From the sequence record PV191315.1: 64,000 nucleotides of DNA, one strand, 5' to 3'. Below the pieces are notes generated by a model. That model was given only the letters and a program-made list of their open reading frames with translations. It had not been told where the DNA came from and searched no databases. Origin of the DNA: Escherichia phage vB_EcoM-P3322. A program made the translations under genes and the position numbers. Below are positions 14,439-29,217 of the stretch, one piece after another (position 1 is the first letter of the stretch; the number at the start of each line of letters is the position of its first letter).

Positions 14439-14813
14439 TTATTCAAAGCAAACATTATTTGCATCTTCAATTCTGTCTTTCACCCATTGAAGACGTAACG
14501 TGTTGGTATGACACGCCAAGTTTATACACTCTGAAAGGTAATCCATGCAATCTGCATTGAACGGAAGATTGTAGTCCAGCCCTGCACATGTAAACTGTTT
14601 CCTCATTTCGTATTTCAAACTATCCAACAAACGATCACGCCATCTTTTATCTTCTTCTCTGGTTGTCTCACCAACAAAATCATCTACATAATCTACCAGA
14701 CAACCACATAAGCCACTCGTTGTGCGATTCATTGCAGGATAGTTGGCAATCCATGCTTTATAGAAGCGAAGCAATGTTGCACTACTCAACGGAATATTTT
14801 TACTCTCTTGCAT
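14439..14813 (-). CDS. hypothetical protein, paralog family A
   Basis: FYKAWIANYP...GLC...LPF...RLQWVKDR. Confidence 0.55.
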   Translation of the reverse strand: MQESKNIPLSSATLLRFYKAWIANYPAMNRTTSGLCGCLVDYVDDFVGETTREEDKRWRDRLLDSLKYEMRKQFTCAGLDYNLPFNADCMDYLSECINLACHTNTLRLQWVKDRIEDANNVCFE

Positions 14814-14819
14814 GACAAT

Positions 14820-16391
14820 CTCCTCTCATCGTTAGCCATCTTTCATGGCAATCATCAATCACCAACATCATACGATCAATCTCAGGGAATTACAATCGAA
14901 TTATCATAGGGGATTCCTATCAATTATCCCATATATACCGATTATTTTTGACACCCCACTCTTGTATAAAAAGTAACCCAAAATATCTACGGGGAGAGAT
15001 TATTTCGGGACACCCTGTTTCATGGCAATCATGGCAAGAATATCTAATAGAATCAATATCATATGGCAAAAATCATGACGCATACGTAAGAAGTGCTTAA
15101 CGCGAATTTTCGGGCCGTCAGGTCCACGCAGCGACAATTCCCAAATATCATGAGAATGAGAATAATTATCATTCGTATTCAATGACTTATGCAAGGCTCA
15201 TGCCAACATAGCGACAAGGTGGGCCACTTGATTATAAATCACACAAACACTTATTTATCAATAGGTTGGCAACTTCATCATATGACGGAACATTGTCAAC
15301 TGATCCCGCTCATGACAAGCAGACTATTATTTATATGAGAATGATTATTATTTAAACGTTTATTAACATAAAAATTAAAATAAATCAAGAATTTTCTGAT
15401 TTTATTTACGTTTAAGAGAAGATGCTCAACATCCTACCGGATCGCCGTTGGCAATCCTCGGATATTTACGCCCCCATGATTAAGGTTTATCTCTTTTCTT
15501 AGTGCTCAACATTCCCGCCCGTGGCGGTAACATTTCGCCCCCAAAATTATTGCTTTTTATTCTATTATGTGCATAGTGTGCAATGTATCGGAATGATGAT
15601 AATCATCCTCCCATTGCCCCCATAATTATTGCCATGCTAATGATTTCATCTTGTAATTACCACAATGATTATTGTTATTGCGCTAATGTTATGATCTTGG
15701 TAATTACATATAATGCTAATAATAAGCCAGCGCAATAAGTGTAAGCGTCATTACGCTTGCAATTATTGCAAGCTACGCAGTAACAAGAAATAACCATCAC
15801 CGATGGTTATGATTGTTGGGGTGTAGTTGGCTTATTATTAGCTCGCTATGTGTCCGGCATAGCGTGCTAATGATGATCCTGGGAATGATTCGTTTTGTAA
15901 TGATTTCATTCAGTCACTATTATGGCAATAGTTATTATTTTAATGGTTTCGTTTGTTATTGTTCGTTAGTTGGTTGTTTTGTCGTGTTATCGTTATCTTG
16001 CTTAGTATTCATCATGGTTTGATTGTTTGTCGTTATCAATCATCTTGCTATTATTCCTTTGATTATGATTAGTTTGCTTATTGTTTTAGGTTGTTGGTTA
16101 GTTAGTTGTTGCGAACTATTATCAACATTATAGTTATGCACTTATATTGCATAGATAAACATGGATAGATGATAATGGTTATCATTGAACTAGAAAAGAG
16201 GTAAAAGGGTGTTTTTGATGGTTTGTTGTTGGTTGTTGATCGATTTTAACCGCTATAAATGGCTCTCTAACAGCCTGTTACCCTGGGAGGTATGGTTATT
16301 CGTTTAATGGTTGATTAGCTCGATACCGCGATTTATTCAATTTTGTTCTGTGTCGGTTTTTCATAGGCGAAAGCTATCAACATTGTTCGGG
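14820..16391. other. 1.6-kb non-coding AT-rich region with GATAAT/ATCATT palindromes and short repeats
   Basis: No credible ORF; palindromes GATGATAATCATC (~15596) and TGATAATGGTTATCA (~16166), AAGCGTCATTACGCTT, GCAATTATTGC; recurring GCTAATGAT and GAGAATGA motifs. Confidence 0.5.
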
Positions 16392-16428
16392 CAAAAAGAA
16401 AGGGCGCTTGGTGCGCCCCTTGTTTTGT
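16392..16428 (-). terminator. bidirectional intrinsic terminator-like hairpin
   Basis: GGGCGCTTGGTGCGCCC stem-loop flanked by A-run and T-run; just downstream of 16435-16854. Confidence 0.55.
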
Positions 16429-16434
16429 TGTCGC

Positions 16435-16854
16435 TTATAACGCTTCATAGATTGAGTAGATCCGGTTTGCCAGATCATTACGAAAGCGGAATTTTTCATC
16501 ACGTTTGATCATCAGATCCTTAAAACCGCATTCTTTCAGTGCTTCATTAACTTTATGGCGGCAAACGTTCATATTATCCTGCGCGTCACCAATAAACTTA
16601 TTGCTGTGATGCATTGCTTTGATCTCTTCCTCTAATACCAGGGCAACTACACGGATCGGATCAAGCTGATATGCGGTAACATCCATGCGGCATTGTAGAC
16701 GGCTTTTAACATCGTTTACCGGATATACTGCAACCTCTTCCCCGTCAACGTTCACAATAACCAATTTACCATCGATTTCGAAGCCTTTGGCGGCGCTACC
16801 GTGACAAAAAGCGTTATCGAAGGAGTAAGCTGGATTATTTGATTTAATGTTCAT
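16435..16854 (-). CDS. hypothetical protein
   Basis: Start at internal ATG (rc 16852-16854, MNIKSNNPAY); flanked by terminator hairpins. Confidence 0.5.
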   Translation of the reverse strand: MNIKSNNPAYSFDNAFCHGSAAKGFEIDGKLVIVNVDGEEVAVYPVNDVKSRLQCRMDVTAYQLDPIRVVALVLEEEIKAMHHSNKFIGDAQDNMNVCRHKVNEALKECGFKDLMIKRDEKFRFRNDLANRIYSIYEAL

Positions 16855-18979: not shown

Positions 18980-19007
18980 TTTACTTTCCTCATTATCGGC
19001 GGCACCA

Positions 19008-19064
19008 TTGCCGCCCTACGTGGTAAATATTAGCACACTGGCGATCTGTGTCAATACTTTTTAT
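19008..19064 (-). promoter_or_regulatory. promoter + 5' GC-hairpin module
   Basis: rc: TTGACA, 17-nt spacer, TAATAT, CACGTAGGGCGGCAATGGTGCCGCC. Confidence 0.55.
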
Positions 19065-19447
19065 TCAATATAAATCAAATTATCTTCACCAATGTAAGCC
19101 GACACGTTCGGCATAAACTTAGCTGCATTGGTTAGGCGGTTGGCTGTGTTAGTGGTGTATATTTCAGGGCGATCCCAAAAGCCTACGCCGTGACCGTTAC
19201 GGGTAAAATGTAAATCATTCCCGATCTGGTTGGCTGTTGCGCCGTCGCTCATTGCCTCAGAGATAGCGGCAAGATTAGCATTAATAAAGGCTGTTACATC
19301 CTGGGCGATCCGTTGATCTGCGCTAGGAGAAAAATCATAATCGTCTAAGTTATCAATAAAATTACCTTCATGATCCCTTGCTGATTCAGCAAAAATAAAG
19401 GCTTCTTTATAGCCGTTGATGATTTCAATAATGATTTCTGTTTTCAT
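19061..19447 (-). CDS. hypothetical protein
   Basis: 128-aa ORF. Confidence 0.55.
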   Translation of the reverse strand: MKTEIIIEIINGYKEAFIFAESARDHEGNFIDNLDDYDFSPSADQRIAQDVTAFINANLAAISEAMSDGATANQIGNDLHFTRNGHGVGFWDRPEIYTTNTANRLTNAAKFMPNVSAYIGEDNLIYIE

Positions 19448-19668
19448 GCTGTACGCTCGACAATAATAATAGTTTGCGGGATCTCGTTTTCTACTACTAA
19501 CAAGGCTTTTTTCTGTGTGATAGATATTTTAACACGTTGTAAAGTAGCGGTAAAATCTTTCATTTCATTATGCGCGGATTTAGTACAATGCCAGATCTCA
19601 GGCTTACCAACTTGTAAGCCGCGTAAAAATTCCGTTTTGCCTGTTTTGTTCGTGATCATTTGTTTCAC
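19444..19668 (-). CDS. hypothetical protein
   Basis: 74-aa ORF. Confidence 0.5.
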   Translation of the reverse strand: MKQMITNKTGKTEFLRGLQVGKPEIWHCTKSAHNEMKDFTATLQRVKISITQKKALLVVENEIPQTIIIVERTA

Positions 19669-19669
19669 C

Positions 19670-19774
19670 TTAACCGATACCGTGGGAAGATAGGATCATA
19701 TTAGCCATAGTTGCAACTACTCCAACCGATAACGCCAGGCCAACCACTGCAACCGTGAAAATTTTCTCTAACAT
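19670..19774 (-). CDS. small hydrophobic peptide
   Basis: 34-aa ORF (MLEKIFTVAVVGLALSVGVV...) directly downstream of a module; track ORF extended through the promoter. Confidence 0.3.
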   Translation of the reverse strand: MLEKIFTVAVVGLALSVGVVATMANMILSSHGIG

Positions 19775-19793
19775 GATTCTACCCTCATTAATG

Positions 19794-19854
19794 GGCGTTG
19801 CACCATTGCCCCGCCCTACGTAATACACTTTACTAGATAACAAATTATTGTCAA
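19794..19854 (-). promoter_or_regulatory. promoter + 5' GC-hairpin module
   Basis: rc: TTGACA (19849-19854), -10, TACGTAGGGCGGGGCAATGGTGCAACGCCC. Confidence 0.5.
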
Positions 19855-19995
19855 GCTTTATTTTACTTCCCAAACGGAAAATTCGCTGCCTGTTGGGATC
19901 ATTTTTTTAATCTTGTTTGCTGCCGCTACCAGGTCAACGGCTTGTACTGTAATAATATAACCAATTGTCGAGGCTGTTGCGTTGAAAGTTTTCAT
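19816..19995 (-). CDS. hypothetical small protein
   Basis: 59-aa ORF (MKTFNATASTIGY...), AAGGG RBS; 3' end overlaps downstream module. Confidence 0.35.
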
Positions 19996-20014
19996 TATAT
20001 TGCCCTTTAATACA

Positions 20015-20037
20015 GGCGGGATTAATCCCGCCTTTTT
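20015..20037 (+). terminator. terminator-like hairpin (plus-strand orientation)
   Basis: GGCGGGATTAATCCCGCC followed by TTTTTG on plus strand, inside minus-strand block. Confidence 0.4.
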
Positions 20038-20039
20038 GA

Positions 20040-20210
20040 TTACTCTTCATTATCGCCGTTATAGTATTCAATGCCGTTTTCATCGGTTACGGTGATGTTA
20101 ACGCCACCGATAGCAACACGATCACGGGCAAACGTCATAGCTTCATTTAAATCTTCAGACCAAAAAATATTGTGACCTTTGCGCGATACATAAAACATAG
20201 TCGGGATCAT
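20040..20210 (-). CDS. hypothetical small protein
   Basis: Start at internal ATG (rc 20208-20210, MIPTMFYVSRKG); longer track ORF would run through the upstream module. Confidence 0.45.
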   Translation of the reverse strand: MIPTMFYVSRKGHNIFWSEDLNEAMTFARDRVAIGGVNITVTDENGIEYYNGDNEE

Positions 20211-20232
20211 GATTTGTTTCTCTTCTGTTATG

Positions 20233-20293
20233 AGCGGTGGACCATTCCGCCGCCCTATGTGGTAAACTTTACTACGTTGTTTGCCTGCTGTCA
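20233..20293 (-). promoter_or_regulatory. promoter + 5' GC-hairpin module
   Basis: rc: TTGACA (20288-20293), -10, CACATAGGGCGGCGGAATGGTCCACCGC. Confidence 0.5.
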
Positions 20294-20295
20294 AA

Positions 20296-20580
20296 CTATT
20301 TTTTAATGTTTTGCCCTACAAAATCGATCACTTCCTTAAGCTGTCTCTCTGTCATGATCGTACCTGGTAACTCTTCTTTAATTTCTTCCGGTAAATAGAT
20401 ATTACCGCGCCAGGTTAACAAACAACCGTTTTGATCTTCGCAGATAGAATAAGAAAACATCCACTCGCAATCATTTTCAAGCTCCCAAAAACACAAAAAG
20501 TCTTCTTTCCCTAAGTTTTCAACGGTTAAACATAATCCGCGACGTGCTGCATAATTAGTTAGGCTTTTTGTGATTTTCAT
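20296..20580 (-). CDS. hypothetical protein
   Basis: Start at internal ATG (rc 20578-20580, MKITKSLTNY). Confidence 0.5.
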   Translation of the reverse strand: MKITKSLTNYAARRGLCLTVENLGKEDFLCFWELENDCEWMFSYSICEDQNGCLLTWRGNIYLPEEIKEELPGTIMTERQLKEVIDFVGQNIKK

Positions 20581-20599
20581 GATTTTTCTCTCTTCTTGT

Positions 20600-20657
20600 G
20601 AGCGGCACCATTGCCGCCCTACAAGATACATATTACCAGATTAAGCGGACTTGTCAA
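20600..20657 (-). promoter_or_regulatory. promoter + 5' GC-hairpin module
   Basis: rc: TTGACA (20652-20657), TAATAT, TTGTAGGGCGGCAATGGTGCCGCTC. Confidence 0.55.
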
Positions 20658-20658
20658 A

Positions 20659-20769
20659 CTATTTTTTCTTTTTCTTTGCTTTCAATCGTCTAAGGTTACG
20701 GCTGGACTTATTGCGCAAGGCGCTTAGATCGTCGTACCCTTTCCATGCTTGCATATCTTTCGGATTCAT
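20659..20769 (-). CDS. small basic protein
   Basis: 36-aa ORF (MNPKDMQAWKGY...KAKKKKK) with AAGGGGA RBS. Confidence 0.35.
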   Translation of the reverse strand: MNPKDMQAWKGYDDLSALRNKSSRNLRRLKAKKKKK

Positions 20770-20778
20770 GTTATCCCC

Positions 20779-20940
20779 TTACTTGTTAGCCGGATCATAT
20801 ACCAGGACCGCGCCGCTTGCTTTCACGCTTTCCGCTTCATAGTTGCGCAGATCGTTTTCTGTAAGATTGAGCGCGATCACTTCCTCGATCTCAACGCCAG
20901 CGGCAAGGGCGATCTCTTTGATAATATCTGTTGTTTTCAT
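20779..20940 (-). CDS. hypothetical small protein
   Basis: Start at internal ATG (rc 20938-20940, MKTTDIIKEI). Confidence 0.4.
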   Translation of the reverse strand: MKTTDIIKEIALAAGVEIEEVIALNLTENDLRNYEAESVKASGAVLVYDPANK

Positions 20941-20950
20941 GGTGTGCACC

Positions 20951-21070
20951 TTATAAGATGATTGATAAGATAGTGACAACGAAAGCGATTATACTGATGG
21001 CAAATGTCATCTTTTTACCTTCGGATACTGCCGGATTTTCTACCGTGTATTCTACTGTGTACTTGCTCAT
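20951..21070 (-). CDS. small membrane peptide
   Basis: 39-aa ORF with C-terminal TM segment FAISIIAFVVTILSIIL. Confidence 0.35.
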   Translation of the reverse strand: MSKYTVEYTVENPAVSEGKKMTFAISIIAFVVTILSIIL

Positions 21071-21093
21071 CGTGTAATCCTCTCGTTTGCTTT

Positions 21094-21150
21094 GGGAACT
21101 ATTCCCGCCGCCCTATGAATTAAATATACACTATCTCAAAATGATTGCAA
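21094..21150 (-). promoter_or_regulatory. promoter + 5' GC-hairpin module (TTGCAA -35 variant)
   Basis: rc: TTGCAA, -10, TTCATAGGGCGGCGGGAATAGTTCCC. Confidence 0.5.
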
Positions 21151-21168
21151 GCCTTTTTCTAAATTATT

Positions 21169-21453
21169 TTATTCAGTAAACAAACCATCATTTACAACGG
21201 CGGCGATGATCTCCCGTGCCATTGATTCAGGGAAAGGGGCGCTATAGTCCTGGCTTGTCTCATCGGTATCGGTGATCCAATGATAAGCTAACGAGTAAAA
21301 GCCTTTACTAACTGTTTTCAGTGAGATGATGATCACTCGGTCAAGCTTATTGGTGAATGTTGCCGTTAATGTGTTACCCTCCTGCGTCATGTTGGACAAG
21401 TAAGCGAGATCATTAATCAGGGAAAACATTAGCACGGTGTTAGCTTTACTCAT
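21169..21453 (-). CDS. hypothetical protein
   Basis: Start at internal ATG (rc 21451-21453, MSKANTVLMF) with GAGGA RBS. Confidence 0.5.
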   Translation of the reverse strand: MSKANTVLMFSLINDLAYLSNMTQEGNTLTATFTNKLDRVIIISLKTVSKGFYSLAYHWITDTDETSQDYSAPFPESMAREIIAAVVNDGLFTE

Positions 21454-21471
21454 GATTGCATCCTCAAAGGG

Positions 21472-21530
21472 GCGCGGCACCATTGCCGCCCTACACGATA
21501 ACTATAACACAATGTAAAACAGGGTCAACC
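21472..21530 (-). promoter_or_regulatory. promoter + 5' GC-hairpin module
   Basis: rc: TTGACC, TATAGT, TATCGTGTAGGGCGGCAATGGTGCCGCGCC. Confidence 0.5.
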
Positions 21531-21731
21531 TTTATTTTTCCACGGTGTCAGCTTGTTAATCATTGGTGATAAATAGCGTTTACCAACGTAAAACAGTACG
21601 CCAACTGATGCAACGGCGGCGACCTCATGCATAGCCGACGGGAAACGGGTATCATAATAAGATCCAATAATAGCAATAGCGGCAACGGCTGCAACGTCGA
21701 TAATGATTTTCTCTTGTTTTGCGGTGATCAT
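21525..21731 (-). CDS. small membrane protein
   Basis: 68 aa with two hydrophobic segments. Confidence 0.5.
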   Translation of the reverse strand: MITAKQEKIIIDVAAVAAIAIIGSYYDTRFPSAMHEVAAVASVGVLFYVGKRYLSPMINKLTPWKNKG

Positions 21732-21752
21732 AGTATTTACCTTTTTGTATGG

Positions 21753-21810
21753 TGGGGAACTATTCCCCGCCTGATGTAATACAGTTTAACAGGTCCGGTT
21801 ATGGTGTCAA
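21753..21810 (-). promoter_or_regulatory. promoter + 5' GC-hairpin module
   Basis: rc: TTGACA (21805-21810), -10, ACATCAGGCGGGGAATAGTTCCCCACC. Confidence 0.5.
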
Positions 21811-21816
21811 CCACTT

Positions 21817-22002
21817 TTAAAGATATTTTATGCTAATGACGTTTTCAGGTTTTACCTTGTTATAATGTGCATCAACATAGATCAAACCATCGTCAGAAAA
21901 GCCCAGGATCACGCCCTGCGCGATAAAACCGTACTCGTCACGGTAACGCACGGCTATTTTTAATGTTGCGTTGTAGGCTGTTTTAAGCTCGTTTAAAGTC
22001 AT
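21817..22002 (-). CDS. hypothetical protein
   Basis: 61-aa ORF. Confidence 0.45.
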   Translation of the reverse strand: MTLNELKTAYNATLKIAVRYRDEYGFIAQGVILGFSDDGLIYVDAHYNKVKPENVISIKYL

Positions 22003-22021
22003 TTTTGTTTATCCTCTACAT

Positions 22022-22051
22022 GTAAAAAGAAAGGGCGCTTGATGCGCCCTT
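22022..22051 (-). terminator. intrinsic terminator
   Basis: AAGGGCGCATCAAGCGCCCTT hairpin followed on minus strand by TTCTTTTTAC. Confidence 0.6.
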
Positions 22052-22057
22052 GTTATG

Positions 22058-22204
22058 TTAATCCTCTAAATCCATCCAATTATATTTGTCACTCTTCCCG
22101 CGCTTTGTTTTATTACGCTTGTCACCTTTGCGGATCACTTCCTCGTTCCAGGCCTTGCGGATCTTGGAAGATTGAATTTTTTCTGCGCGATTAGATGTAT
22201 TCAT
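22058..22204 (-). CDS. small basic protein
   Basis: 48-aa ORF (MNTSNRAEKIQSSKIRK...) between module and terminator. Confidence 0.4.
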   Translation of the reverse strand: MNTSNRAEKIQSSKIRKAWNEEVIRKGDKRNKTKRGKSDKYNWMDLED

Positions 22205-22221
22205 TTTGTTTCCTCTTTATA

Positions 22222-22277
22222 TGAGCGGCACCATTGCCGCTATATTGTTAATTTAAACTGTTTTGTAAAATTGTCAA
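22222..22277 (-). promoter_or_regulatory. promoter + 5' GC-hairpin module
   Basis: rc: TTGACA (22272-22277), spacer, -10, TAGCGGCAATGGTGCCGCTC. Confidence 0.5.
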
Positions 22278-22283
22278 GGTTTA

Positions 22284-22637
22284 TCATTCATAAGAGCAAG
22301 CAAGGATCACGCCTGCAATATAAAGCCAATAATTTTCCCTTTCTCGTTGGATTTTATCATCGCTGCTATTCTCTTTAATGTATCCCCAGGATGTTAACAA
22401 GCGATCAATTTCCCAATATTCGAAAGCTATATTAATATCTGATGGCAAACCTTGTAACCATGATGCAAGTGCTTTAACAATACTATAATTAAAACGTGAT
22501 TGATTATCAGGGTACCAGTACTCGGAATTAAAACGGCGCATCAATTCCGCGATCTTCTCTTTTTCGGTTGTAATACCGTAATCATTAAAATCGATAGCGG
22601 CAAGGATGTACTCTTTAATTGCATTTTGTGCTTTCAT
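22284..22637 (-). CDS. hypothetical protein
   Basis: 117-aa ORF. Confidence 0.5.
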   Translation of the reverse strand: MKAQNAIKEYILAAIDFNDYGITTEKEKIAELMRRFNSEYWYPDNQSRFNYSIVKALASWLQGLPSDINIAFEYWEIDRLLTSWGYIKENSSDDKIQRERENYWLYIAGVILACSYE

Positions 22638-22654
22638 GGTCTTTCTCTCTTTTT

Positions 22655-22712
22655 AGCGGGAACTATTCCCGCCCTACGTGTAACAGTTTACTGAAAATTA
22701 AATCCGTGTCAA
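22655..22712 (-). promoter_or_regulatory. promoter + 5' GC-hairpin module
   Basis: rc: TTGACA (22707-22712), -10, CACGTAGGGCGGGAATAGTTCCCGCT. Confidence 0.55.
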
Positions 22713-22715
22713 GCT

Positions 22716-22937
22716 TTATTTTGTTACTACCATTTGGTACCCTGTTTCAATGTTAGTAAATACTGTTATCCCGTCCTGGCGTTCACTCATTAGCATACAA
22801 GGCGCTAACATCCTTTCTACTGCCTTGCACTCATTGTAAACGGCGGTTATGTCTCCTGCGGCCTTGTCTTCTGTGGTGAATGTATCGTTTATGTAAACTT
22901 GACTAGCGACAACGGCGACAATAGCGAAAGTGATCAT
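22716..22937 (-). CDS. hypothetical protein with hydrophobic N-terminus
   Basis: 73 aa; MITFAIVAVVASQVY signal/anchor-like start. Confidence 0.5.
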   Translation of the reverse strand: MITFAIVAVVASQVYINDTFTTEDKAAGDITAVYNECKAVERMLAPCMLMSERQDGITVFTNIETGYQMVVTK

Positions 22938-23010
22938 GATATTTTTCTCTTTATGTGTTTCTATTAGTTGATATTACAGCAATTCGCAGATTATTTTTTA
23001 GCAATTCGTG

Positions 23011-23229
23011 CTATTTACTCATAACAGTATCGAAAACAAATTTTTCTTTGTTGTCAAAGCTCACGTATCCGATTCTACCACGCAAGCCGCAAGTAGTGCC
23101 GTATTCGTAACCGTCAAGACCTTTAACCTTCCAATCCACGCCCATTAAAACCGCATTATATTTCTGACCAACTACAAACGCGCCACCAGTTGATTCAATG
23201 CAAACAACTTTAATTTTACGGATTGCCAT
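23011..23229 (-). CDS. hypothetical protein
   Basis: 72-aa ORF. Confidence 0.5.
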   Translation of the reverse strand: MAIRKIKVVCIESTGGAFVVGQKYNAVLMGVDWKVKGLDGYEYGTTCGLRGRIGYVSFDNKEKFVFDTVMSK

Positions 23230-23265
23230 TTTCTTTCTCTCTTTCTGGTGATTGGTTTCTCTTCT

Positions 23266-23305
23266 CTATAGCGCCCATTGTAAGGCGCTATAACGAAAAG
23301 TCAAC
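23266..23305 (-). promoter_or_regulatory. promoter with palindrome spanning the -10
   Basis: rc: GTTGAC -35, 16-nt spacer, TACAAT; 9-bp arms TATAGCGCC...GGCGCTATA (23266-23291) flank the -10. Confidence 0.45.
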
Positions 23306-23307
23306 GA

Positions 23308-23475
23308 TTATTTTTTAAGGCTTAAAGTACCTAACTTGTCAGCATGACGCAGACCAGGGAATATCCATTTGCCTGACTCATCTTTCACCGGGGCTTTAAG
23401 CGTAGCGCCCAGGTTGGCGGCGTTAACTTTACGTGCAACGTTGCGAGCGGCTTCACGGGTAGCGAAAGTGATCAT
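23308..23475 (-). CDS. hypothetical small protein
   Basis: 55-aa ORF (MITFATREAARNVARKV...). Confidence 0.4.
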   Translation of the reverse strand: MITFATREAARNVARKVNAANLGATLKAPVKDESGKWIFPGLRHADKLGTLSLKK

Positions 23476-23499
23476 GGTGTTTTCCTCTTCTCTTTGTTA

Positions 23500-23561
23500 G
23501 GCGGTGGACCATTCCGCCGCCTTGATGTAATACAGTTTACTTTATTTTATTAAGATTGCAA
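23500..23561 (-). promoter_or_regulatory. promoter + 5' GC-hairpin module (TTGCAA variant)
   Basis: rc: TTGCAA, -10, CATCAAGGCGGCGGAATGGTCCACCGCC. Confidence 0.5.
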
Positions 23562-23567
23562 GCGGTT

Positions 23568-23783
23568 TTATGAAATAATTGTCAAAGTAAAATCATAAGA
23601 CTGATTTAATTTATATTGTACTTTATTGCCGTAGTAGTCACCTTTACGTAAAGATCCGCGAATACCTATCACATCCTTTACATCTTTAAGATTTTTTACG
23701 CCTGTAATGTCTTTATTGAAATACTCGTCATCTGAAAATAAAACTTGACTTGCATTTTTTAACAGTGTACGGATATTAGCCAT
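23568..23783 (-). CDS. hypothetical protein
   Basis: 71-aa ORF. Confidence 0.45.
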   Translation of the reverse strand: MANIRTLLKNASQVLFSDDEYFNKDITGVKNLKDVKDVIGIRGSLRKGDYYGNKVQYKLNQSYDFTLTIIS

Positions 23784-23806
23784 CGTGATAATCTCTCTTC
23801 TGTTGT

Positions 23807-23864
23807 GAGCGGCACTATTGCCGCCCTACGTAATACAGTTTACTCTTTTTCTTTCCGGTGTCAA
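23807..23864 (-). promoter_or_regulatory. promoter + 5' GC-hairpin module
   Basis: rc: TTGACA (23859-23864), -10, TACGTAGGGCGGCAATAGTGCCGCTC. Confidence 0.55.
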
Positions 23865-23873
23865 CAATCTTTT

Positions 23874-24101
23874 TCAGATTAATTCATCCAGGCATAACAG
23901 GCGATCAACGTTGAGATCGGTTAGGCTGATGGTTGGCACCTGGTAGGATTCGATGTACTCGACGCTTGCATATTCCCCAAAATTAGCAACAGCCCACTTA
24001 TTCAAGATCTCACATACATCATTAATCTTTTTGTTTGTTACAACTGCAATGACCTGGGAAGTGCCAACGGTGCCGGATACGCGAACAATATTGATAGCCA
24101 T
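23874..24101 (-). CDS. hypothetical protein
   Basis: 75-aa ORF. Confidence 0.45.
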   Translation of the reverse strand: MAINIVRVSGTVGTSQVIAVVTNKKINDVCEILNKWAVANFGEYASVEYIESYQVPTISLTDLNVDRLLCLDELI

Positions 24102-24122
24102 AATCTTTAATCTCTCTGTTTT

Positions 24123-24182
24123 GGCGGGAAACCACTTCCCGCCCTATGTGATACATCTTACACTAATTTTAAACGTTGTCAA
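24123..24182 (-). promoter_or_regulatory. promoter + 5' GC-hairpin module
   Basis: rc: TTGACA (24177-24182), TAAGAT-type -10, CACATAGGGCGGGAAGTGGTTTCCCGCC. Confidence 0.55.
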
Positions 24183-24191
24183 CTGTTTTTA

Positions 24192-24431
24192 TTACATTCC
24201 AACCATCGCGGCACGGATCGCAGTAGTGCTATATTTGAAACCGTCTGGCGTTTTATCTTGTCCAGTTTGTTCCAGAAAAAGCATCATATCCCGCGCCGCA
24301 TCATTACGATTAGCATTAGCGTTAATAAAATCTTGGGCCAACCGGTATAACGATTCATCGTTATTAATCCAAAGGCTTACATTCCAATGAGTTTTGTTTT
24401 TGTGACCGTTGTACATTTTAGATTTAGCCAT
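24192..24431 (-). CDS. hypothetical protein
   Basis: 79-aa ORF. Confidence 0.45.
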   Translation of the reverse strand: MAKSKMYNGHKNKTHWNVSLWINNDESLYRLAQDFINANANRNDAARDMMLFLEQTGQDKTPDGFKYSTTAIRAAMVGM

Positions 24432-24465
24432 GATTTTTCTCTCTTTTTCAGTGAGGCGGGAAGTG

Positions 24466-24514
24466 TTCCCGCTCTCTATGTAATACAGTTTACTCTTTTT
24501 ATTCGTGCTGTCAA
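24466..24514 (-). promoter_or_regulatory. promoter + 5' GC-hairpin module
   Basis: rc: TTGACA (24509-24514), -10, CATAGAGAGCGGGAACACTTCCCGCC. Confidence 0.5.
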
Positions 24515-24520
24515 TGCTTT

Positions 24521-24886
24521 TTATAAATCTTTTTTACGTTTTACATCGCTCGCATGACTGTATACAGTGATCCCATTGTCACGGCAAAAACGGGAAAGAT
24601 ACGCGCCGCGTGAAAACTCTTTACCTTCCATATTAATAACCTTGCTAAATTCTTCTAGGGCAACGGTATCAAAATGATCCCCATAGCCATATTGAAACGG
24701 AACGTTAACTACTTCGATCAGTTTACCGCCGATCTCAACATCAACCATCAAAGAGAAATAAGTATTACCATAAGACTTTTGAAACCAGCGACGGGCGCTA
24801 ATATGTACCGCTTCAATGCTGGATAGTTCAATTTTAGCAGTGTTAGCCAGGGTAGCATAAGCAGAAACATTGATATTTTTAGCCAT
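24521..24886 (-). CDS. hypothetical protein
   Basis: 121-aa ORF; degenerate module upstream (24890-24975). Confidence 0.5.
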   Translation of the reverse strand: MAKNINVSAYATLANTAKIELSSIEAVHISARRWFQKSYGNTYFSLMVDVEIGGKLIEVVNVPFQYGYGDHFDTVALEEFSKVINMEGKEFSRGAYLSRFCRDNGITVYSHASDVKRKKDL

Positions 24887-24981
24887 AGTCTTTAATCTCT
24901 TTTGATTAGTTAGGAGTATTCCCGATAAAAGTTATTATGCTTATACTATCACTCATTGTCAATAGTATAAGACTAAAACTT

Positions 24982-25161
24982 TTAACGATAATCGTTATAG
25001 GCTTTATTGACCTGGCGAATGTAACATTCGAAAGCAAGATCAATGTATTCGTATTCACGCACATAATCACCATAGGTCACTACATACATTTTTAAAGTTT
25101 CCTCATAAGCCAGGAGGATCGAATCTAAACCTATAATCTCAGTTTTTGCAATGATAGCCAT
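24982..25161 (-). CDS. hypothetical small protein
   Basis: 59-aa ORF (MAIIAKTEIIGLD...). Confidence 0.4.
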   Translation of the reverse strand: MAIIAKTEIIGLDSILLAYEETLKMYVVTYGDYVREYEYIDLAFECYIRQVNKAYNDYR

Positions 25162-25181
25162 GATGTTAACCTTTTATTGTT

Positions 25182-25238
25182 GGCGGCACCATTGCCGCCC
25201 TACGTGATAAACTATACCAGAATTTTAAACAGTGTCAA
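25182..25238 (-). promoter_or_regulatory. promoter + 5' GC-hairpin module
   Basis: rc: TTGACA (25233-25238), 16-nt spacer, TATAGT, CACGTAGGGCGGCAATGGTGCCGCC. Confidence 0.6.
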
Positions 25239-25244
25239 CCGTTT

Positions 25245-25607
25245 TTATTCGTAAATTTTACCGCTTTCGGCCCATACCATAACGCGGCGCATACTATCCC
25301 AAGTGTTTTGATCCAAGTTTAAGCCGTGCAACTCTTCGGTACTTCCCAGACCAGGTACCGCTTTGTTGTAAGTTGCATATAAGCGCCCTTGATACTCATA
25401 CGCCAGAGTAAGATCCGTTTGAATCATCTTTTTAAGCATAGCATTAAGCATCATATTAGCGGCATGTTGATCACGTTTTAGCGGTAACATATCAATAAGG
25501 GCGCGATAAGCTGAAACATGAATATCAACCGTTTCACGTGGTAAATTTTTCATATCATCACGGAAAGATACCAGATTAAACATGATAGTATTGATTTGCT
25601 TGCTCAT
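25245..25607 (-). CDS. hypothetical protein
   Basis: 120-aa ORF. Confidence 0.5.
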   Translation of the reverse strand: MSKQINTIMFNLVSFRDDMKNLPRETVDIHVSAYRALIDMLPLKRDQHAANMMLNAMLKKMIQTDLTLAYEYQGRLYATYNKAVPGLGSTEELHGLNLDQNTWDSMRRVMVWAESGKIYE

Positions 25608-25628
25608 TGTGTTACCCTTTTTTGTTTT

Positions 25629-25689
25629 GGCGGGGAAGTATTCCGCCGCCCTATGTGATACATCTTACCAGATTAAAAAACGTTGTCAA
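25629..25689 (-). promoter_or_regulatory. promoter + 5' GC-hairpin module
   Basis: rc: TTGACA (25684-25689), 16-nt spacer, TAAGAT (25662-25667), CACATAGGGCGGCGGAATACTTCCCCGCC. Confidence 0.6.
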
Positions 25690-25698
25690 GAATATTTT

Positions 25699-25794
25699 TT
25701 AGAAAATAATAACCGCTACTACAACCCAAAATGGAACGGCTAGAATGATAGCGTTAATCGTTCCAACCGTCAAGCTATTTTCTTTATTAATCAT
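25699..25794 (-). CDS. small membrane peptide
   Basis: 31-aa ORF (MINKENSLTVGTINAIILAVPFWVVVAVIIF). Confidence 0.3.
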   Translation of the reverse strand: MINKENSLTVGTINAIILAVPFWVVVAVIIF

Positions 25795-25822
25795 TGTAAG
25801 CCTCTTGCATAATTTCACTATT

Positions 25823-25880
25823 AGCGGCACCATTGCCGCCCTACGTGGTAAATATTATGCCAGTGGCGGCGATATGTCAA
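25823..25880 (-). promoter_or_regulatory. promoter + 5' GC-hairpin module
   Basis: rc: TTGACA (25875-25880), 17-nt spacer, TAATAT, CACGTAGGGCGGCAATGGTGCCGC. Confidence 0.6.
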
Positions 25881-27330: not shown

Positions 27331-27603
27331 GATCTTAACTCCAGGTGATGAATGATGTTTTTTGTTGGTGGACGGTGGATTATGGAGATCCTCACCTTTG
27401 CCCGTCCTGCATTGCGCCCTCCTGTTGTTTATTGTCGTTGTGCCGCGCCCCCCTCGACAAGATGAATACTACGCTACCAGGCGAGGAACGTCAACCACTT
27501 TTTCAATCTTTTTTATTTTCTTTTTGCTTGCTATATATAAAGGAAAGGGCTATCATCTTTCTACCGCGCCAACCAGGGCGCACAACAAAGAAAGGGCGAC
27601 ACC

Positions 27604-27870
27604 ATGACAAATACTACATTACACCTTATGCACTCATTGGGCTGGCAAGGCGGCACGGTGCACCAGGTAGCAAGCGCAACGGGCTTAAAGGTTGAAACAG
27701 TTCTCAACCTGGGCGATCATAAGGTGGAAGAGATAGACCATTTTGATCCGTTCGCTGATGGTTATTTATGGGCTTGCAGTGGCGGCGGGGAAAGCAAGAT
27801 CCCACCAGGGGCGCGGGGCGATATGCATTTTTGGTTAGGTGTCCTTTCCTGGCAAGAAAACAAAAAATAA
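27604..27870 (+). CDS. hypothetical protein in GC-rich island (uncertain)
   Basis: 88-aa plus-strand ORF with AAGGG RBS and upstream TTGCTA-N17-TATCAT; GC content clearly above surroundings. Confidence 0.3.
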   Translation: MTNTTLHLMHSLGWQGGTVHQVASATGLKVETVLNLGDHKVEEIDHFDPFADGYLWACSGGGESKIPPGARGDMHFWLGVLSWQENKK

Positions 27871-27872
27871 TC

Positions 27873-27901
27873 TTGACAAGCCCAGGGATCGGGCTTATAC
27901 T
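27873..27901 (+). promoter_or_regulatory. strong sigma70-like promoter with operator-like palindrome in spacer
   Basis: TTGACA (27873-27878), 17-nt spacer AGCCCAGGGATCGGGCT, TATACT (27896-27901); GC-rich structured sequence follows, no convincing ORF. Confidence 0.5.
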
Positions 27902-28130
27902 GTTTTACATACAGAAGAGGAAGCGCCACCCCACGGCGTAAAGGCGGGGCTAACATACCAGGGCGCTGGTTGGAAGGTTGATCGCCGGTAGGCTGGGCGC
28001 TATATATTTGTAAAGAAATGTAAAGATAAAATAATCGCTTGCTTTCCTGGCTGGATCTGTTATTCTTATTACATGGCGAGGGGACACGGGAGCGCGAGAC
28101 AAACACCGCCCCTGCGCGTCATTCTCTAAA

Positions 28131-28202
28131 TGAGAATGATTATCATTTACCTTATCAAATAAGAATCAATCTCATTTATAAACCTAAATGCGAATCATTA
28201 TC
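28131..28202. promoter_or_regulatory. pair of Fur-box-like sites
   Basis: GAGAATGATTATCATTTAC and GCGAATCATTATCATTTGC match about 14-15 of 19 positions of GATAATGATAATCATTATC. Confidence 0.35.
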
Positions 28203-28253
28203 ATTTGCATTTCCATATGAGAACTCTTCTCATTCCCATCTGCATAAATTTTT

Positions 28254-28434
28254 GTAAACTTTAAATTTTGCTTTTGTACTTTCATTTTTGTAAAAGCAAA
28301 AAAACTTTAAATACTGTGGGCGCGCAAAATTTTTAAAATTTTCCTTGACTTTTGAGTTTTGTTTTGTATCTAACATTTTAAGATAATTTTCCTAAACTTT
28401 AAATTTTGGTTTTCAACTTTCACTTTTGTAAATT
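28254..28434. repeat. degenerate tandem direct repeat (~138-bp period), iteron-like
   Basis: TAAACTTTAAATTTTGCTTTTGTACTTTCATTTTTGTAAAAGC (28254-28296) vs TAAACTTTAAATTTTGGTTTTCAACTTTCACTTTTGTAAATTC (28392-28434); ATTTGAGATAAC repeated twice nearby. Confidence 0.6.
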
Positions 28435-28674
28435 CTTAAAAAGTTTAAATAATTTGAGGAATTTTTGAGATAACAAGTAGGGGTAATTTGAGATAACCTT
28501 TAATCTTATTGGCAGACCTTCAGGAACCCACCTAGATCGAATCCTAATGATGCAAACTGAAAAAGATAAGTGTTTGTATAGGACAAAATAATAGGCTCTC
28601 TACAGTGTTGTAGGAGCCTTATTTCTGTGCTACAAAGTGACACCTTTGTTCTAAAAATGAAAAAAGTTAAAATA

Positions 28675-29217
28675 TCACAAATATCGTCTTTGCGGTATTT
28701 TGTCTGGGAAAAGTATTTCGATCAGTTTGTTATGATATTTGCCTAAAAGATTCTGCCCTTTCCAGGTGGCAGGGTTTAGCACCCCTGGTTCATACATCCC
28801 CATTCCAATTCCGTAAACCTTATCGTAGGGGCTTGCTTCAACAAACGTTTTGTATTGGTAAAGGTGTAAGTCTGCATACAAATCTGGATTCTGTACATAT
28901 TTCAAGCATAAACCTCGCATAACAATACGCTCACGGTTCTCTTCCCATACGTTGTTATCAAAATCCGACACTGCCCTACCCATACGTTTGTAATAAGCTT
29001 GGATCTTCTCATCTTTCCGTATCAAACTATGAGTCAGAATAGCCTGTGCAGTGTTGTGGTCATTAAAAAGCAAAGCTTTACGCCACATCATGTATTGTTC
29101 GACACAATTAAATGTCTGATTGTAACCTGGTTCGGTTTCTGTAAAGGGTGCAATATACCAATTACTAAAAACATCTTTATGTGAAAAGAAGAATACATAT
29201 TCGTCAGTTATTCTCAT
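28675..29217 (-). CDS. NADAR-domain protein (YbiA-like, DUF1768)
   Basis: FSNWY...P, EQYMMWRKALLF, ILTHS, MGRAV, NVWEENRERIVMRGLCLKYVQNPDL, GIGMG...GQNLLGKYHNKLIE follow the NADAR motif order. Confidence 0.75.
   Translation of the reverse strand: MRITDEYVFFFSHKDVFSNWYIAPFTETEPGYNQTFNCVEQYMMWRKALLFNDHNTAQAILTHSLIRKDEKIQAYYKRMGRAVSDFDNNVWEENRERIVMRGLCLKYVQNPDLYADLHLYQYKTFVEASPYDKVYGIGMGMYEPGVLNPATWKGQNLLGKYHNKLIEILFPDKIPQRRYL

Follow-up and report, generated by a model that had tools for sequence, protein, structure and literature searches.

What does a phage keep in a long stretch of DNA that holds no credible gene? The question is raised by Escherichia phage vB_EcoM-P3322 (sequence record PV191315.1), of which 64,000 nucleotides, referred to here as the window, were analysed. 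The window derives from a Phapecoctavirus genome (subfamily Stephanstirmvirinae) that resembles phAPEC8, and its positions 14814-16434 lack open reading frames (ORFs). An earlier reading made from the letters alone, called the sequence-only reading below, had singled out positions 14820-16391 as rich in palindromes resembling the binding site of the iron regulator Fur, and had offered three options: an iron-responsive control region, a binding array for a phage protein, or an origin or terminus. The stretch is real, is non-coding and is kept across the Stephanstirmvirinae. The evidence discussed in the following sections indicates that it is probably the genome-end (concatemer-junction) region of a myovirus with short direct terminal repeats (DTRs). 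The DTR, conserved motifs at the cut sites, hairpin repeats and a covarying structured element were all left out of the earlier reading.

Genome ends and the direct terminal repeat

A megablast search with positions 14820-16391 returned 75 phage records, all from phAPEC8-like myoviruses of ~150 kb. A single match spans at least 80% of the query in 47 of the 75, identity is 95-99% in most records, and the stretch is without annotation in nearly all of them. Several of these records begin or stop inside the query at an identical base. Mapped onto the window, the records of Mt1B1_P17, WPEC1 and BI-EHEC begin at 15099 and finish at 15426, and the ends of the Schickermooser record map to 15098 and 15426, an exact repeat of 329 bp. 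Both virion ends are carried at these coordinates by five independent records from four near-identical Phapecoctavirus phages; the same sequence is found at the two ends of the virion DNA, and the end positions are fixed and conserved among relatives. The region therefore contains a DTR. With virion DNA starting near 15099 and stopping at 15426, the intervening 328 bp are carried twice, once at each packaged end.

The terminal repeat of Schickermooser has been published as 328 bp (PMC6563267) and that of BME3, from another clade of the subfamily, as 342 bp (PMC12210895); a 2025 paper reports that DTRs terminate all Stephanstirmvirinae genomes. In the other clades, the BME3 and phi1_175008 records also start with AACGCG, and the PD06 record begins immediately past the equivalent right cut, just after GGCT. 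The terminus option of the sequence-only reading is thus strongly supported, with the physical genome ends and a 328-bp DTR inside the region (PMC6563267). The features that define the ends are as follows (a caret marks the cut).

15099-15426, no strand assigned: DTR of 328 bp, present once in this circularised or concatemer/junction-type assembly
15084-15112, plus strand: left DTR boundary motif ACGTAAGAAGTGCT(T)^AACGCGAATTTTC, conserved in all clades
15408-15432, plus strand: right DTR boundary motif ACGTTTAAGAGAAGATGCT^CAACAT, where records end and PD06 starts
15265-15300, no strand assigned: mid-DTR inverted repeat GTTGGCAA ... TTGTCAAC, read from the sequence

The two boundaries share AG(N)TGCT^YAAC and are cut in the same register to within 1 nt. 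These motifs are kept in Phapecoctavirus, the phiWec179 group, PsgM04F, Citrobacter phage Tr1, Klebsiella phages and Justusliebigvirus, and the left boundary is separated from the first right cut by 320-352 bp in 12 of 14 genomes and by 400 bp in one metagenomic relative. Other clades also carry an equivalent of the mid-DTR inverted repeat (TTGGCAAG...CTTGCCAA).

Some further observations on the ends and on the records that carry them may be listed here. At 16320-16345, some 1.2 kb into the genome, lies ATACCGCGATTTATTCA (in Klebsiella phages CATAACGCGATTTATTCAC, for example in the KP13-26 equivalent), which is similar to TAACGCGA(A)TTTTC of the left boundary; the likeness may be coincidental or may mark a second recognition site. 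In the BME3 record (PP239276, 144800-147371) the junction is present a second time, internally and with N bases, and a 'DTR-L' feature is placed away from the record end, which appears to be an artefact of assembly or annotation. This coliphage region has counterparts of 80-98% identity in records whose labels name Campylobacter, Acinetobacter, Pseudomonas or 'Dompiswa' phages, and these host labels are probably wrong, or reflect contamination or claims of polyvalence. WPEC1 and WPEC2 exceed their relatives in length by ~10 kb.

Box-hairpin-box repeats at the left end

The right boundary motif doubles as the opening box of a tripartite repeat unit: (T/G)GCTCAACA, a hairpin of 5-9 bp, and (A/T)TTTCGCCCC. 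The copies in the window are given below.

15423-15482, plus strand: unit 1, TGCTCAACAT, hairpin, TTACGCCCCC; includes the right cut site
15503-15549, plus strand: unit 2, TGCTCAACAT, CCGCC/GGCGG hairpin, TTTCGCCCCC
15594-15632, plus strand: degenerate third unit, hairpin GATGATAATCATC and then box B GCCCCCATAATTATTGC; box A absent

The boxes and a stem of 5-9 bp are kept, and the stem sequence varies between copies and between phages. Copy number ranges from one to three: phAPEC8 has a single unit, KP13-26 has three, and the window has two besides the degenerate third copy. In that degenerate copy, the stem GATGATAATCATC (15594-15606) lies in the least conserved stretch and is itself not conserved. 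Located directly inside the left end, the units could act as a recognition or assembly site for the packaging machinery, in the manner of cosB beside cosN; were they the recognition site of the terminase, packaging would start at the left end.

A covarying structured element

The highest cross-genus conservation of the region is found at 15714-15873 (80-97% column identity), within an element whose helices were identified by alignment covariation.

15705-15879, plus strand: conserved structured element, 175 nt
15715-15729/15828-15842, plus strand: helix P1
15732-15748/15753-15769, plus strand: helix P2
15772-15786/15813-15827, plus strand: helix P3
15790-15798/15802-15810, plus strand: helix P4
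15844-15864, plus strand: helix P5

The structure model was obtained with RNAalifold from a MAFFT alignment of 17 distinct sequences and comprises five helices with 53 pairs. In this alignment, 99.9% of cells are paired and 15 pairs have changed on both sides. None of 500 shuffles was as good, and sliding the 3' partners by 1-3 columns left 23-52% of cells paired. Compensatory changes thus maintain the helices across diverged sequences. For example, P1 occurs as AAGCCA with TGGCTT, AACGCA with TGCGTT, ACCGCA with TGCGGT and AACACA with TGTGTT, and covarying pairs number six in P4 and three in P5. Support for P2 comes from GCAAT(N)(N), which covaries with the centre of an apparent palindrome, GCTTGCAA-NNN-TTGCAAGC; a local hairpin formed by this palindrome was dropped in favour of P2 because its NNN bases covary with the upstream GCAAT(N)(N). 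P4 was also considered as a minus-strand terminator and rejected, as its T-run is not conserved.

The same alignment contains 85 G·U cells and no A·C cells, which identifies the plus strand as the folding strand. The window sequence by itself folds into the consensus structure, at -76.8 kcal/mol (z = -8.6) as plus-strand RNA; the corresponding minus-strand RNA reaches -60.9 kcal/mol, and the plus strand folded as DNA has z = -9.3. A pattern scan of metagenomes found eight more homologues, which score 137-197 bits with a covariance model based on the 17 sequences. An alignment extended by seven of these metagenomic sequences, all unseen by the model, is 99.2% paired with 16 compensatory pairs, although it was fitted to the model and leans towards the model's structure. 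With the covariance model, hits are confined to this phage lineage, at exactly one per genome, and neither rV5 nor the chance pattern matches yield any; the pattern matches in bacterial genomes were discarded as chance hits in unrelated metagenome-assembled genomes. No match in the window reaches the gathering thresholds of Rfam 15 (the best sub-threshold scores are 15-24 bits against cut-offs of 39-117), and a scan for tRNA and tmRNA returned none.

The element is most likely a cis-acting RNA, or possibly a single-stranded DNA signal, and the model ties it provisionally to replication priming or packaging. RNA and single-stranded DNA are both retained because neither a strong sigma-70 promoter nor a terminator after P5 was found. 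Signs of transcription were sought, and the search yielded no conserved promoter upstream and no transcriptome data. The hexamer TATAAT at 15709-15714, directly before P1, was dismissed as a promoter element, being genus-specific and so placed that a start there would truncate P1.

A different origin of the same signal must be weighed here. The element could be a free-standing gene for a trans-acting phage non-coding RNA, which might counter a host defence or bind a host protein, and which lies beside the genome end by chance. Covariation and the G·U asymmetry are typical of functional RNA, the element is present once per genome and restricted to this lineage, and its identity within the genus (99-100%) exceeds that of the whole region (~96%). 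However, it has no promoter and no terminator directly after it, the 10 invariant pairs of P1 are built from the GCTAAT repeat, which points to recognition of the DNA by its sequence, and its distance to the DTR and to the terminator on its right is fairly constant, which suggests a role in cis. We regard such a gene as rather unlikely.

Fur-box-like palindromes

The four palindromes quoted in the sequence-only reading are all present (15152-15173, 15337-15352, 15594-15606 and 16170-16184), and three of them occupy conserved positions in relatives. These three correspond to the following sites.

15157-15171, no strand assigned: palindrome A, TGAGAATAATTATCA, within a 16/19 match to the Fur 19-mer at 15152-15170
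15336-15350, no strand assigned: palindrome B, TGAGAATGATTATTA, a perfect TGATAATGATTATCA in Justusliebigvirus
16170-16184, no strand assigned: palindrome C, TGATAATGGTTATCA, from the 7-1-7 scan

Measured from the left boundary, site A lies at +53 to +66 in 10 of 14 genomes, which represent several genera, and site B at +224 to +261 in 11 of 14; site C lies 430-625 nt downstream of the structured core in 12 of 14. A motif scan against shuffled sequence, proposed as a check on the claim that the region is rich in GATAAT/ATCATT palindromes, bore out the full 7-1-7 unit TGATAATnATTATCA: with at most two mismatches it occurs three times in the region against 0.059 expected (0 of 2000 region shuffles) and seven times across the whole window against 0.84 expected (0 of 100 shuffles). 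ATCATT is likewise enriched (9 against 3.65 expected, P = 0.009), whereas the excess of the GATAAT hexamer by itself is marginal (6 against 2.8 expected, P = 0.067). Against the Fur 19-mer, the region attains at best 16/19, which is above chance and is reached by 7 of 1000 shuffles. The three sites share the consensus AATGA(G/T)AAT-N-ATTATCATT, and their mismatches to the 7-1-7 unit number one or two, and zero in the Justusliebigvirus orthologues. Enrichment together with conserved position indicates that the palindromes are genuine, selected sites of a protein-binding type. The three ATGA(G/T)AAT-N-ATTATCAT palindromes, two of them in the DTR, could thus be operator-type sites bound by host Fur or by a phage regulator.

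As judged from its sequence match, host Fur is a plausible ligand. The sites resemble the E. coli Fur box (19-bp GATAATGATAATCATTATC; 7-1-7 TGATAATnATTATCA) in their 16/19 match, in 7-1-7 units with 0-2 mismatches and in being A/T-rich palindromes over -10-like hexamers, of which AATAAT and GATAAT occur inside sites A and C. They differ in residing in the terminal repeat of a virulent phage, with no clear promoter, and in having mostly G at position 4 of the half-site. The Fur box is common to Escherichia, Klebsiella and Citrobacter hosts, and the sites are kept in phages whose listed hosts belong mostly to these genera. One reading is that host Fur-Fe2+ occupies all three palindromes and keeps promoters at the genome ends repressed, so that early or terminal transcription would respond to iron. 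We consider iron control of this kind unlikely. Sites A and C overlap only weak sigma-70-like sites of at most 7.4 bits, compared with 14-16 bits for the best in the window, and conservation is lacking in the -35 elements; the majority of left half-sites carry TGAGAAT in place of TGATAAT; and two more 7-1-7 copies at 28.1 kb, in another non-coding region, are in keeping with a phage-wide operator. The half-sites, the lack of a convincing overlapping promoter and the copies at 28.1 kb make a binding array for a phage protein, as the sequence-only reading had proposed, an equally possible interpretation.

That other region, 27340-28675, is a second ORF-poor conserved stretch (144 phage records), with a GC-rich part (0.47) followed by an AT-rich part (0.34). 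It carries the two Fur-like palindromes at 28131-28145 and 28189-28203, a related ATGAGAACTCTTCTCAT at 28218-28234 and repeated TTTTGTAAA...CTTTAAAT units at 28250-28460. Its role may be that of an origin or of a further control region.

A possible replication origin

The part of the region to the right of the hairpin units is conserved in a manner distinct from the DTR: positions 15636-16391 are ~90% identical to relatives with 80% average nucleotide identity (ANI), whose DTR is 66% identical, and have no codon signal. Three features are found here.

15636-15704, plus strand: GCTAAT repeats (15636 and 15682), with a local inverted repeat at 15652-15669/15691-15708
15880-16260, plus strand: C-poor, T-rich tract (C 9.4%, T 46%), ~90% identical to 80%-ANI relatives
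16134-16154, no strand assigned: conserved palindrome TTATGCA-N7-TGCATAG, in the C-poor tract

The third Fur-like site, palindrome C, also lies in the C-poor tract. GCTAAT occurs six times in the region against 1.1 expected (0 of 1000 shuffles) and forms the invariant part of P1. A single long structured RNA running through 15880-16400 (520 nt) was ruled out, since the folding energy of the consensus is ~0 on both strands.

Together these features raise the question of an origin of replication, in which a plus-strand transcript through the structured element would prime synthesis or open the DNA, as with ColE1 RNA II, T7 phiOL and T4 oriF, with the GCTAAT repeats as iterons and the C-poor, AT-rich tract as the unwinding element. 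A strand-specific structured element, the excess of GCTAAT, a strongly conserved, non-coding and compositionally skewed tract, and a shift in GC skew near 15 kb are all consistent with this proposal. T7 secondary origins, moreover, adjoin its terminal repeats. Plasmids that carry an origin and a junction are packaged, as cited in PMC4281155. On the other hand, no promoter was found and no DnaA-type or known initiator sites were identified, the skew shift is explicable by gene content, and the repeat-rich non-coding DNA at 27.3-28.7 kb is an equally good candidate. An origin at this locus therefore seems improbable, about as much so as iron control.

A motif connected with early transcription, the phage early-promoter/5'-hairpin motif GTAGGGCGGCAATGGTGCCG, was found at 19-26 kb (seven copies) and not in the region. 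The seven copies of this 20-nt hairpin motif lie on the minus strand at 19000-25844, with none expected, and carry the label 'PHIRE promoters' in phAPEC8. As the copies in phAPEC8 immediately follow strong TTGACA-17-TAATAT promoters, they appear to be conserved hairpins in the 5' leaders of early transcripts and not promoters.

Coding status and neighbouring genes

The earlier statement that the stretch holds no credible ORF is borne out. The longest ORF in 14814-16434 encodes 69 aa and has a TTG start, substitutions relative to ~80%-identical relatives have no codon periodicity in the stretch (chi-square p = 0.16-0.94), and insertions and deletions relative to these relatives measure 1, 2, 10, 18, 22 or 23 nt, lengths that are not consistently multiples of three. 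In the same test, the right neighbour gene (16435-16854), used as a control, is periodic (p = 0.0005-0.002). Unannotated small protein genes, suggested by automatic annotations of six to eight hypothetical proteins, by ORFs of 30-70 aa annotated here in several records and by an AGAGG motif upstream of the 32-aa ORF at 16209-16307, are highly improbable and the coding hypothesis was ruled out by the periodicity and indel tests, as that ORF loses its GTG start in phiWec179, the stretch is unrelated in Justusliebigvirus, and a plus strand of almost only A, T and G in the C-poor tract favours stop codons. The ORF at 16209-16307 (plus strand) would encode a hydrophobic product of 32 amino acids from its GTG start; lying in the C-poor tract and absent in Justusliebigvirus, it is probably not a gene.

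The flanking features are given below.

16399-16421, minus strand: strong intrinsic terminator that ends the leftward gene 16435-16854, annotated in phAPEC8 and conserved
14814-15098, minus strand: unique non-coding leader of the physical right end, preceding the first gene there (ATG at 14813)

Both flanking genes are on the minus strand. They fall only into PHROGs of unknown function and have no Pfam match above threshold, so that no candidate binding protein emerged from them. The region had been described as flanked by terminator hairpins, which holds on the right, where the terminator at 16399-16421 also reads, more weakly, on the plus strand; on the left flank none was found. The leader contains the motif TTTCATGGCAATCAT twice (14841-14855 and 15018-15032), a 24-nt tandem repeat at 14884-14928, and sigma-70-like sites that are weak only. 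The TTTCATGGCAATCAT repeats (14836-14855 and 15013-15032) are kept across genera just upstream of the first right-end gene, and on the minus strand their copies open mini-ORFs of 7 and 10 codons (ATGATTGCCATGAAA...). Tandem Repeats Finder reported trivial short arrays only.

Comparison with known systems

The concatemer junction of T7 comprises a 160-bp DTR, the SRL and SRR arrays of short repeats, phiOL and phiOR, and a hairpin processing intermediate. In the T7 model summarised in PMC4281155, processing passes through an intermediate that contains a hairpin, and the repeat is duplicated as the DNA is cut. The region studied here resembles this junction in its short exact DTR, single at the junction and in need of duplication during cutting, in the repeat arrays directly beside it, in hairpin-forming DNA that may be implicated in processing, and in a non-coding flank that may hold an origin or promoter. 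Unlike T7, this phage is a myovirus of ~150 kb that presumably uses host RNA polymerase, and both of its boundaries share one motif. Its repeats are box-hairpin-box units of ~50-80 bp rather than 7-mers, the genes beside its left end read towards the end and not away from it, and it carries a covarying element of 175 nt.

Lambda cos (cosN, cosB with R1-R3, and an IHF site) offers an analogy in which a cut site adjoins repeated elements on the side that is packaged first. There a host DNA-binding protein serves as an architectural factor, which is one possible role of the Fur-like sites. Lambda, in contrast, has 12-nt cohesive ends and sequence-specific R sites, whereas a 328-bp repeat and variable stems are found here.

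In rV5, an ORF-free region of 2.6 kb (104013-106618) has been reported (PMC3606486). It is likewise a large unexplained non-coding stretch in a small-gene region of a related group of large myoviruses, located at a skew change. However, homology between the two was rejected: there is no detectable similarity and no covariance-model match, and the boundary motifs, palindromes and GCTAAT arrays are absent from the rV5 block.

Two further likenesses are analogies only. The injection-stop-signal region of T5 is non-coding DNA near a genome end with dense direct and inverted repeats, but the T5 signal lies in a 10-kb repeat and serves a two-step DNA transfer, of which nothing here is suggestive. 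The early promoters of N4 consist of one to three small hairpins with conserved flanks near a genome end, but they need the virion RNA polymerase, and the first unit here coincides with the DNA cut site.

Proposed mechanism

Under the genome-end assignment, a terminase-associated nuclease would nick opposite strands at the two TGCT^YAAC boundaries in a staggered manner, and the DTR would be duplicated through strand-displacement synthesis, as proposed for T7. The left end would be packaged first, and the right end would enter the cell first with its inward-reading small genes. The structured element would act in cis at the left end, in replication priming or packaging.

Several points weigh against this scheme. 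The end positions were transferred from relatives that are 96-98% identical to this phage, and the left cut shifts by 1 nt between records (15098 or 15099). The 9-mer RTGCTYAAC recurs at three other places in the window, so it is insufficient alone for recognition, and Justusliebigvirus has no box-hairpin-box units and carries CAACAAATA repeats in their place. Scans for sigma-70 promoters, with the consensus and with a weight matrix of our own, found none above 11 bits in the region (the best in the window reach 14-16 bits), and none is conserved upstream of the structured element, so that its transcription is putative. Finally, the roles given to the units, the palindromes and the core are read from position and analogy.

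A more specific proposal is put forward tentatively, as a possibility that is less probable than the genome-end assignment itself. The element and the box-hairpin-box repeats may represent a new class of strand-specific folded signal, RNA or single-stranded DNA, used in cis at the end where packaging starts for replication priming or for processing of the terminal repeat, with the Fur-like sites recruiting host Fur as a regulator or architectural factor.

Implications for the Stephanstirmvirinae

The DTR and its length were known from the literature, and a few GenBank records imply the end coordinates. A limited literature search turned up no account of a motif common to both boundaries, of box-hairpin-box repeats, of Fur-like operators in the DTR or of the 175-nt element, and the architecture and the folded element appear to be undescribed. 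Limited searches on transcriptomes and promoters of the subfamily and on Fur boxes in lytic phages gave nothing useful, and a few searches found no description of Fur binding inside a phage terminal repeat.

Phages of Phapecoctavirus and Justusliebigvirus are repeatedly isolated as candidates for phage therapy, and their GenBank records begin at arbitrary points, with this region left blank or filled with spurious small ORFs. The true ends and the cut-site motifs provide a rule to orient and annotate more than 130 genomes and supply sequence for building packaging-competent constructs. As a candidate for a new RNA or DNA signal of phages, the structured element is well supported. If host Fur does bind within the DTR, iron status would be linked to the first steps of infection by a virulent phage.

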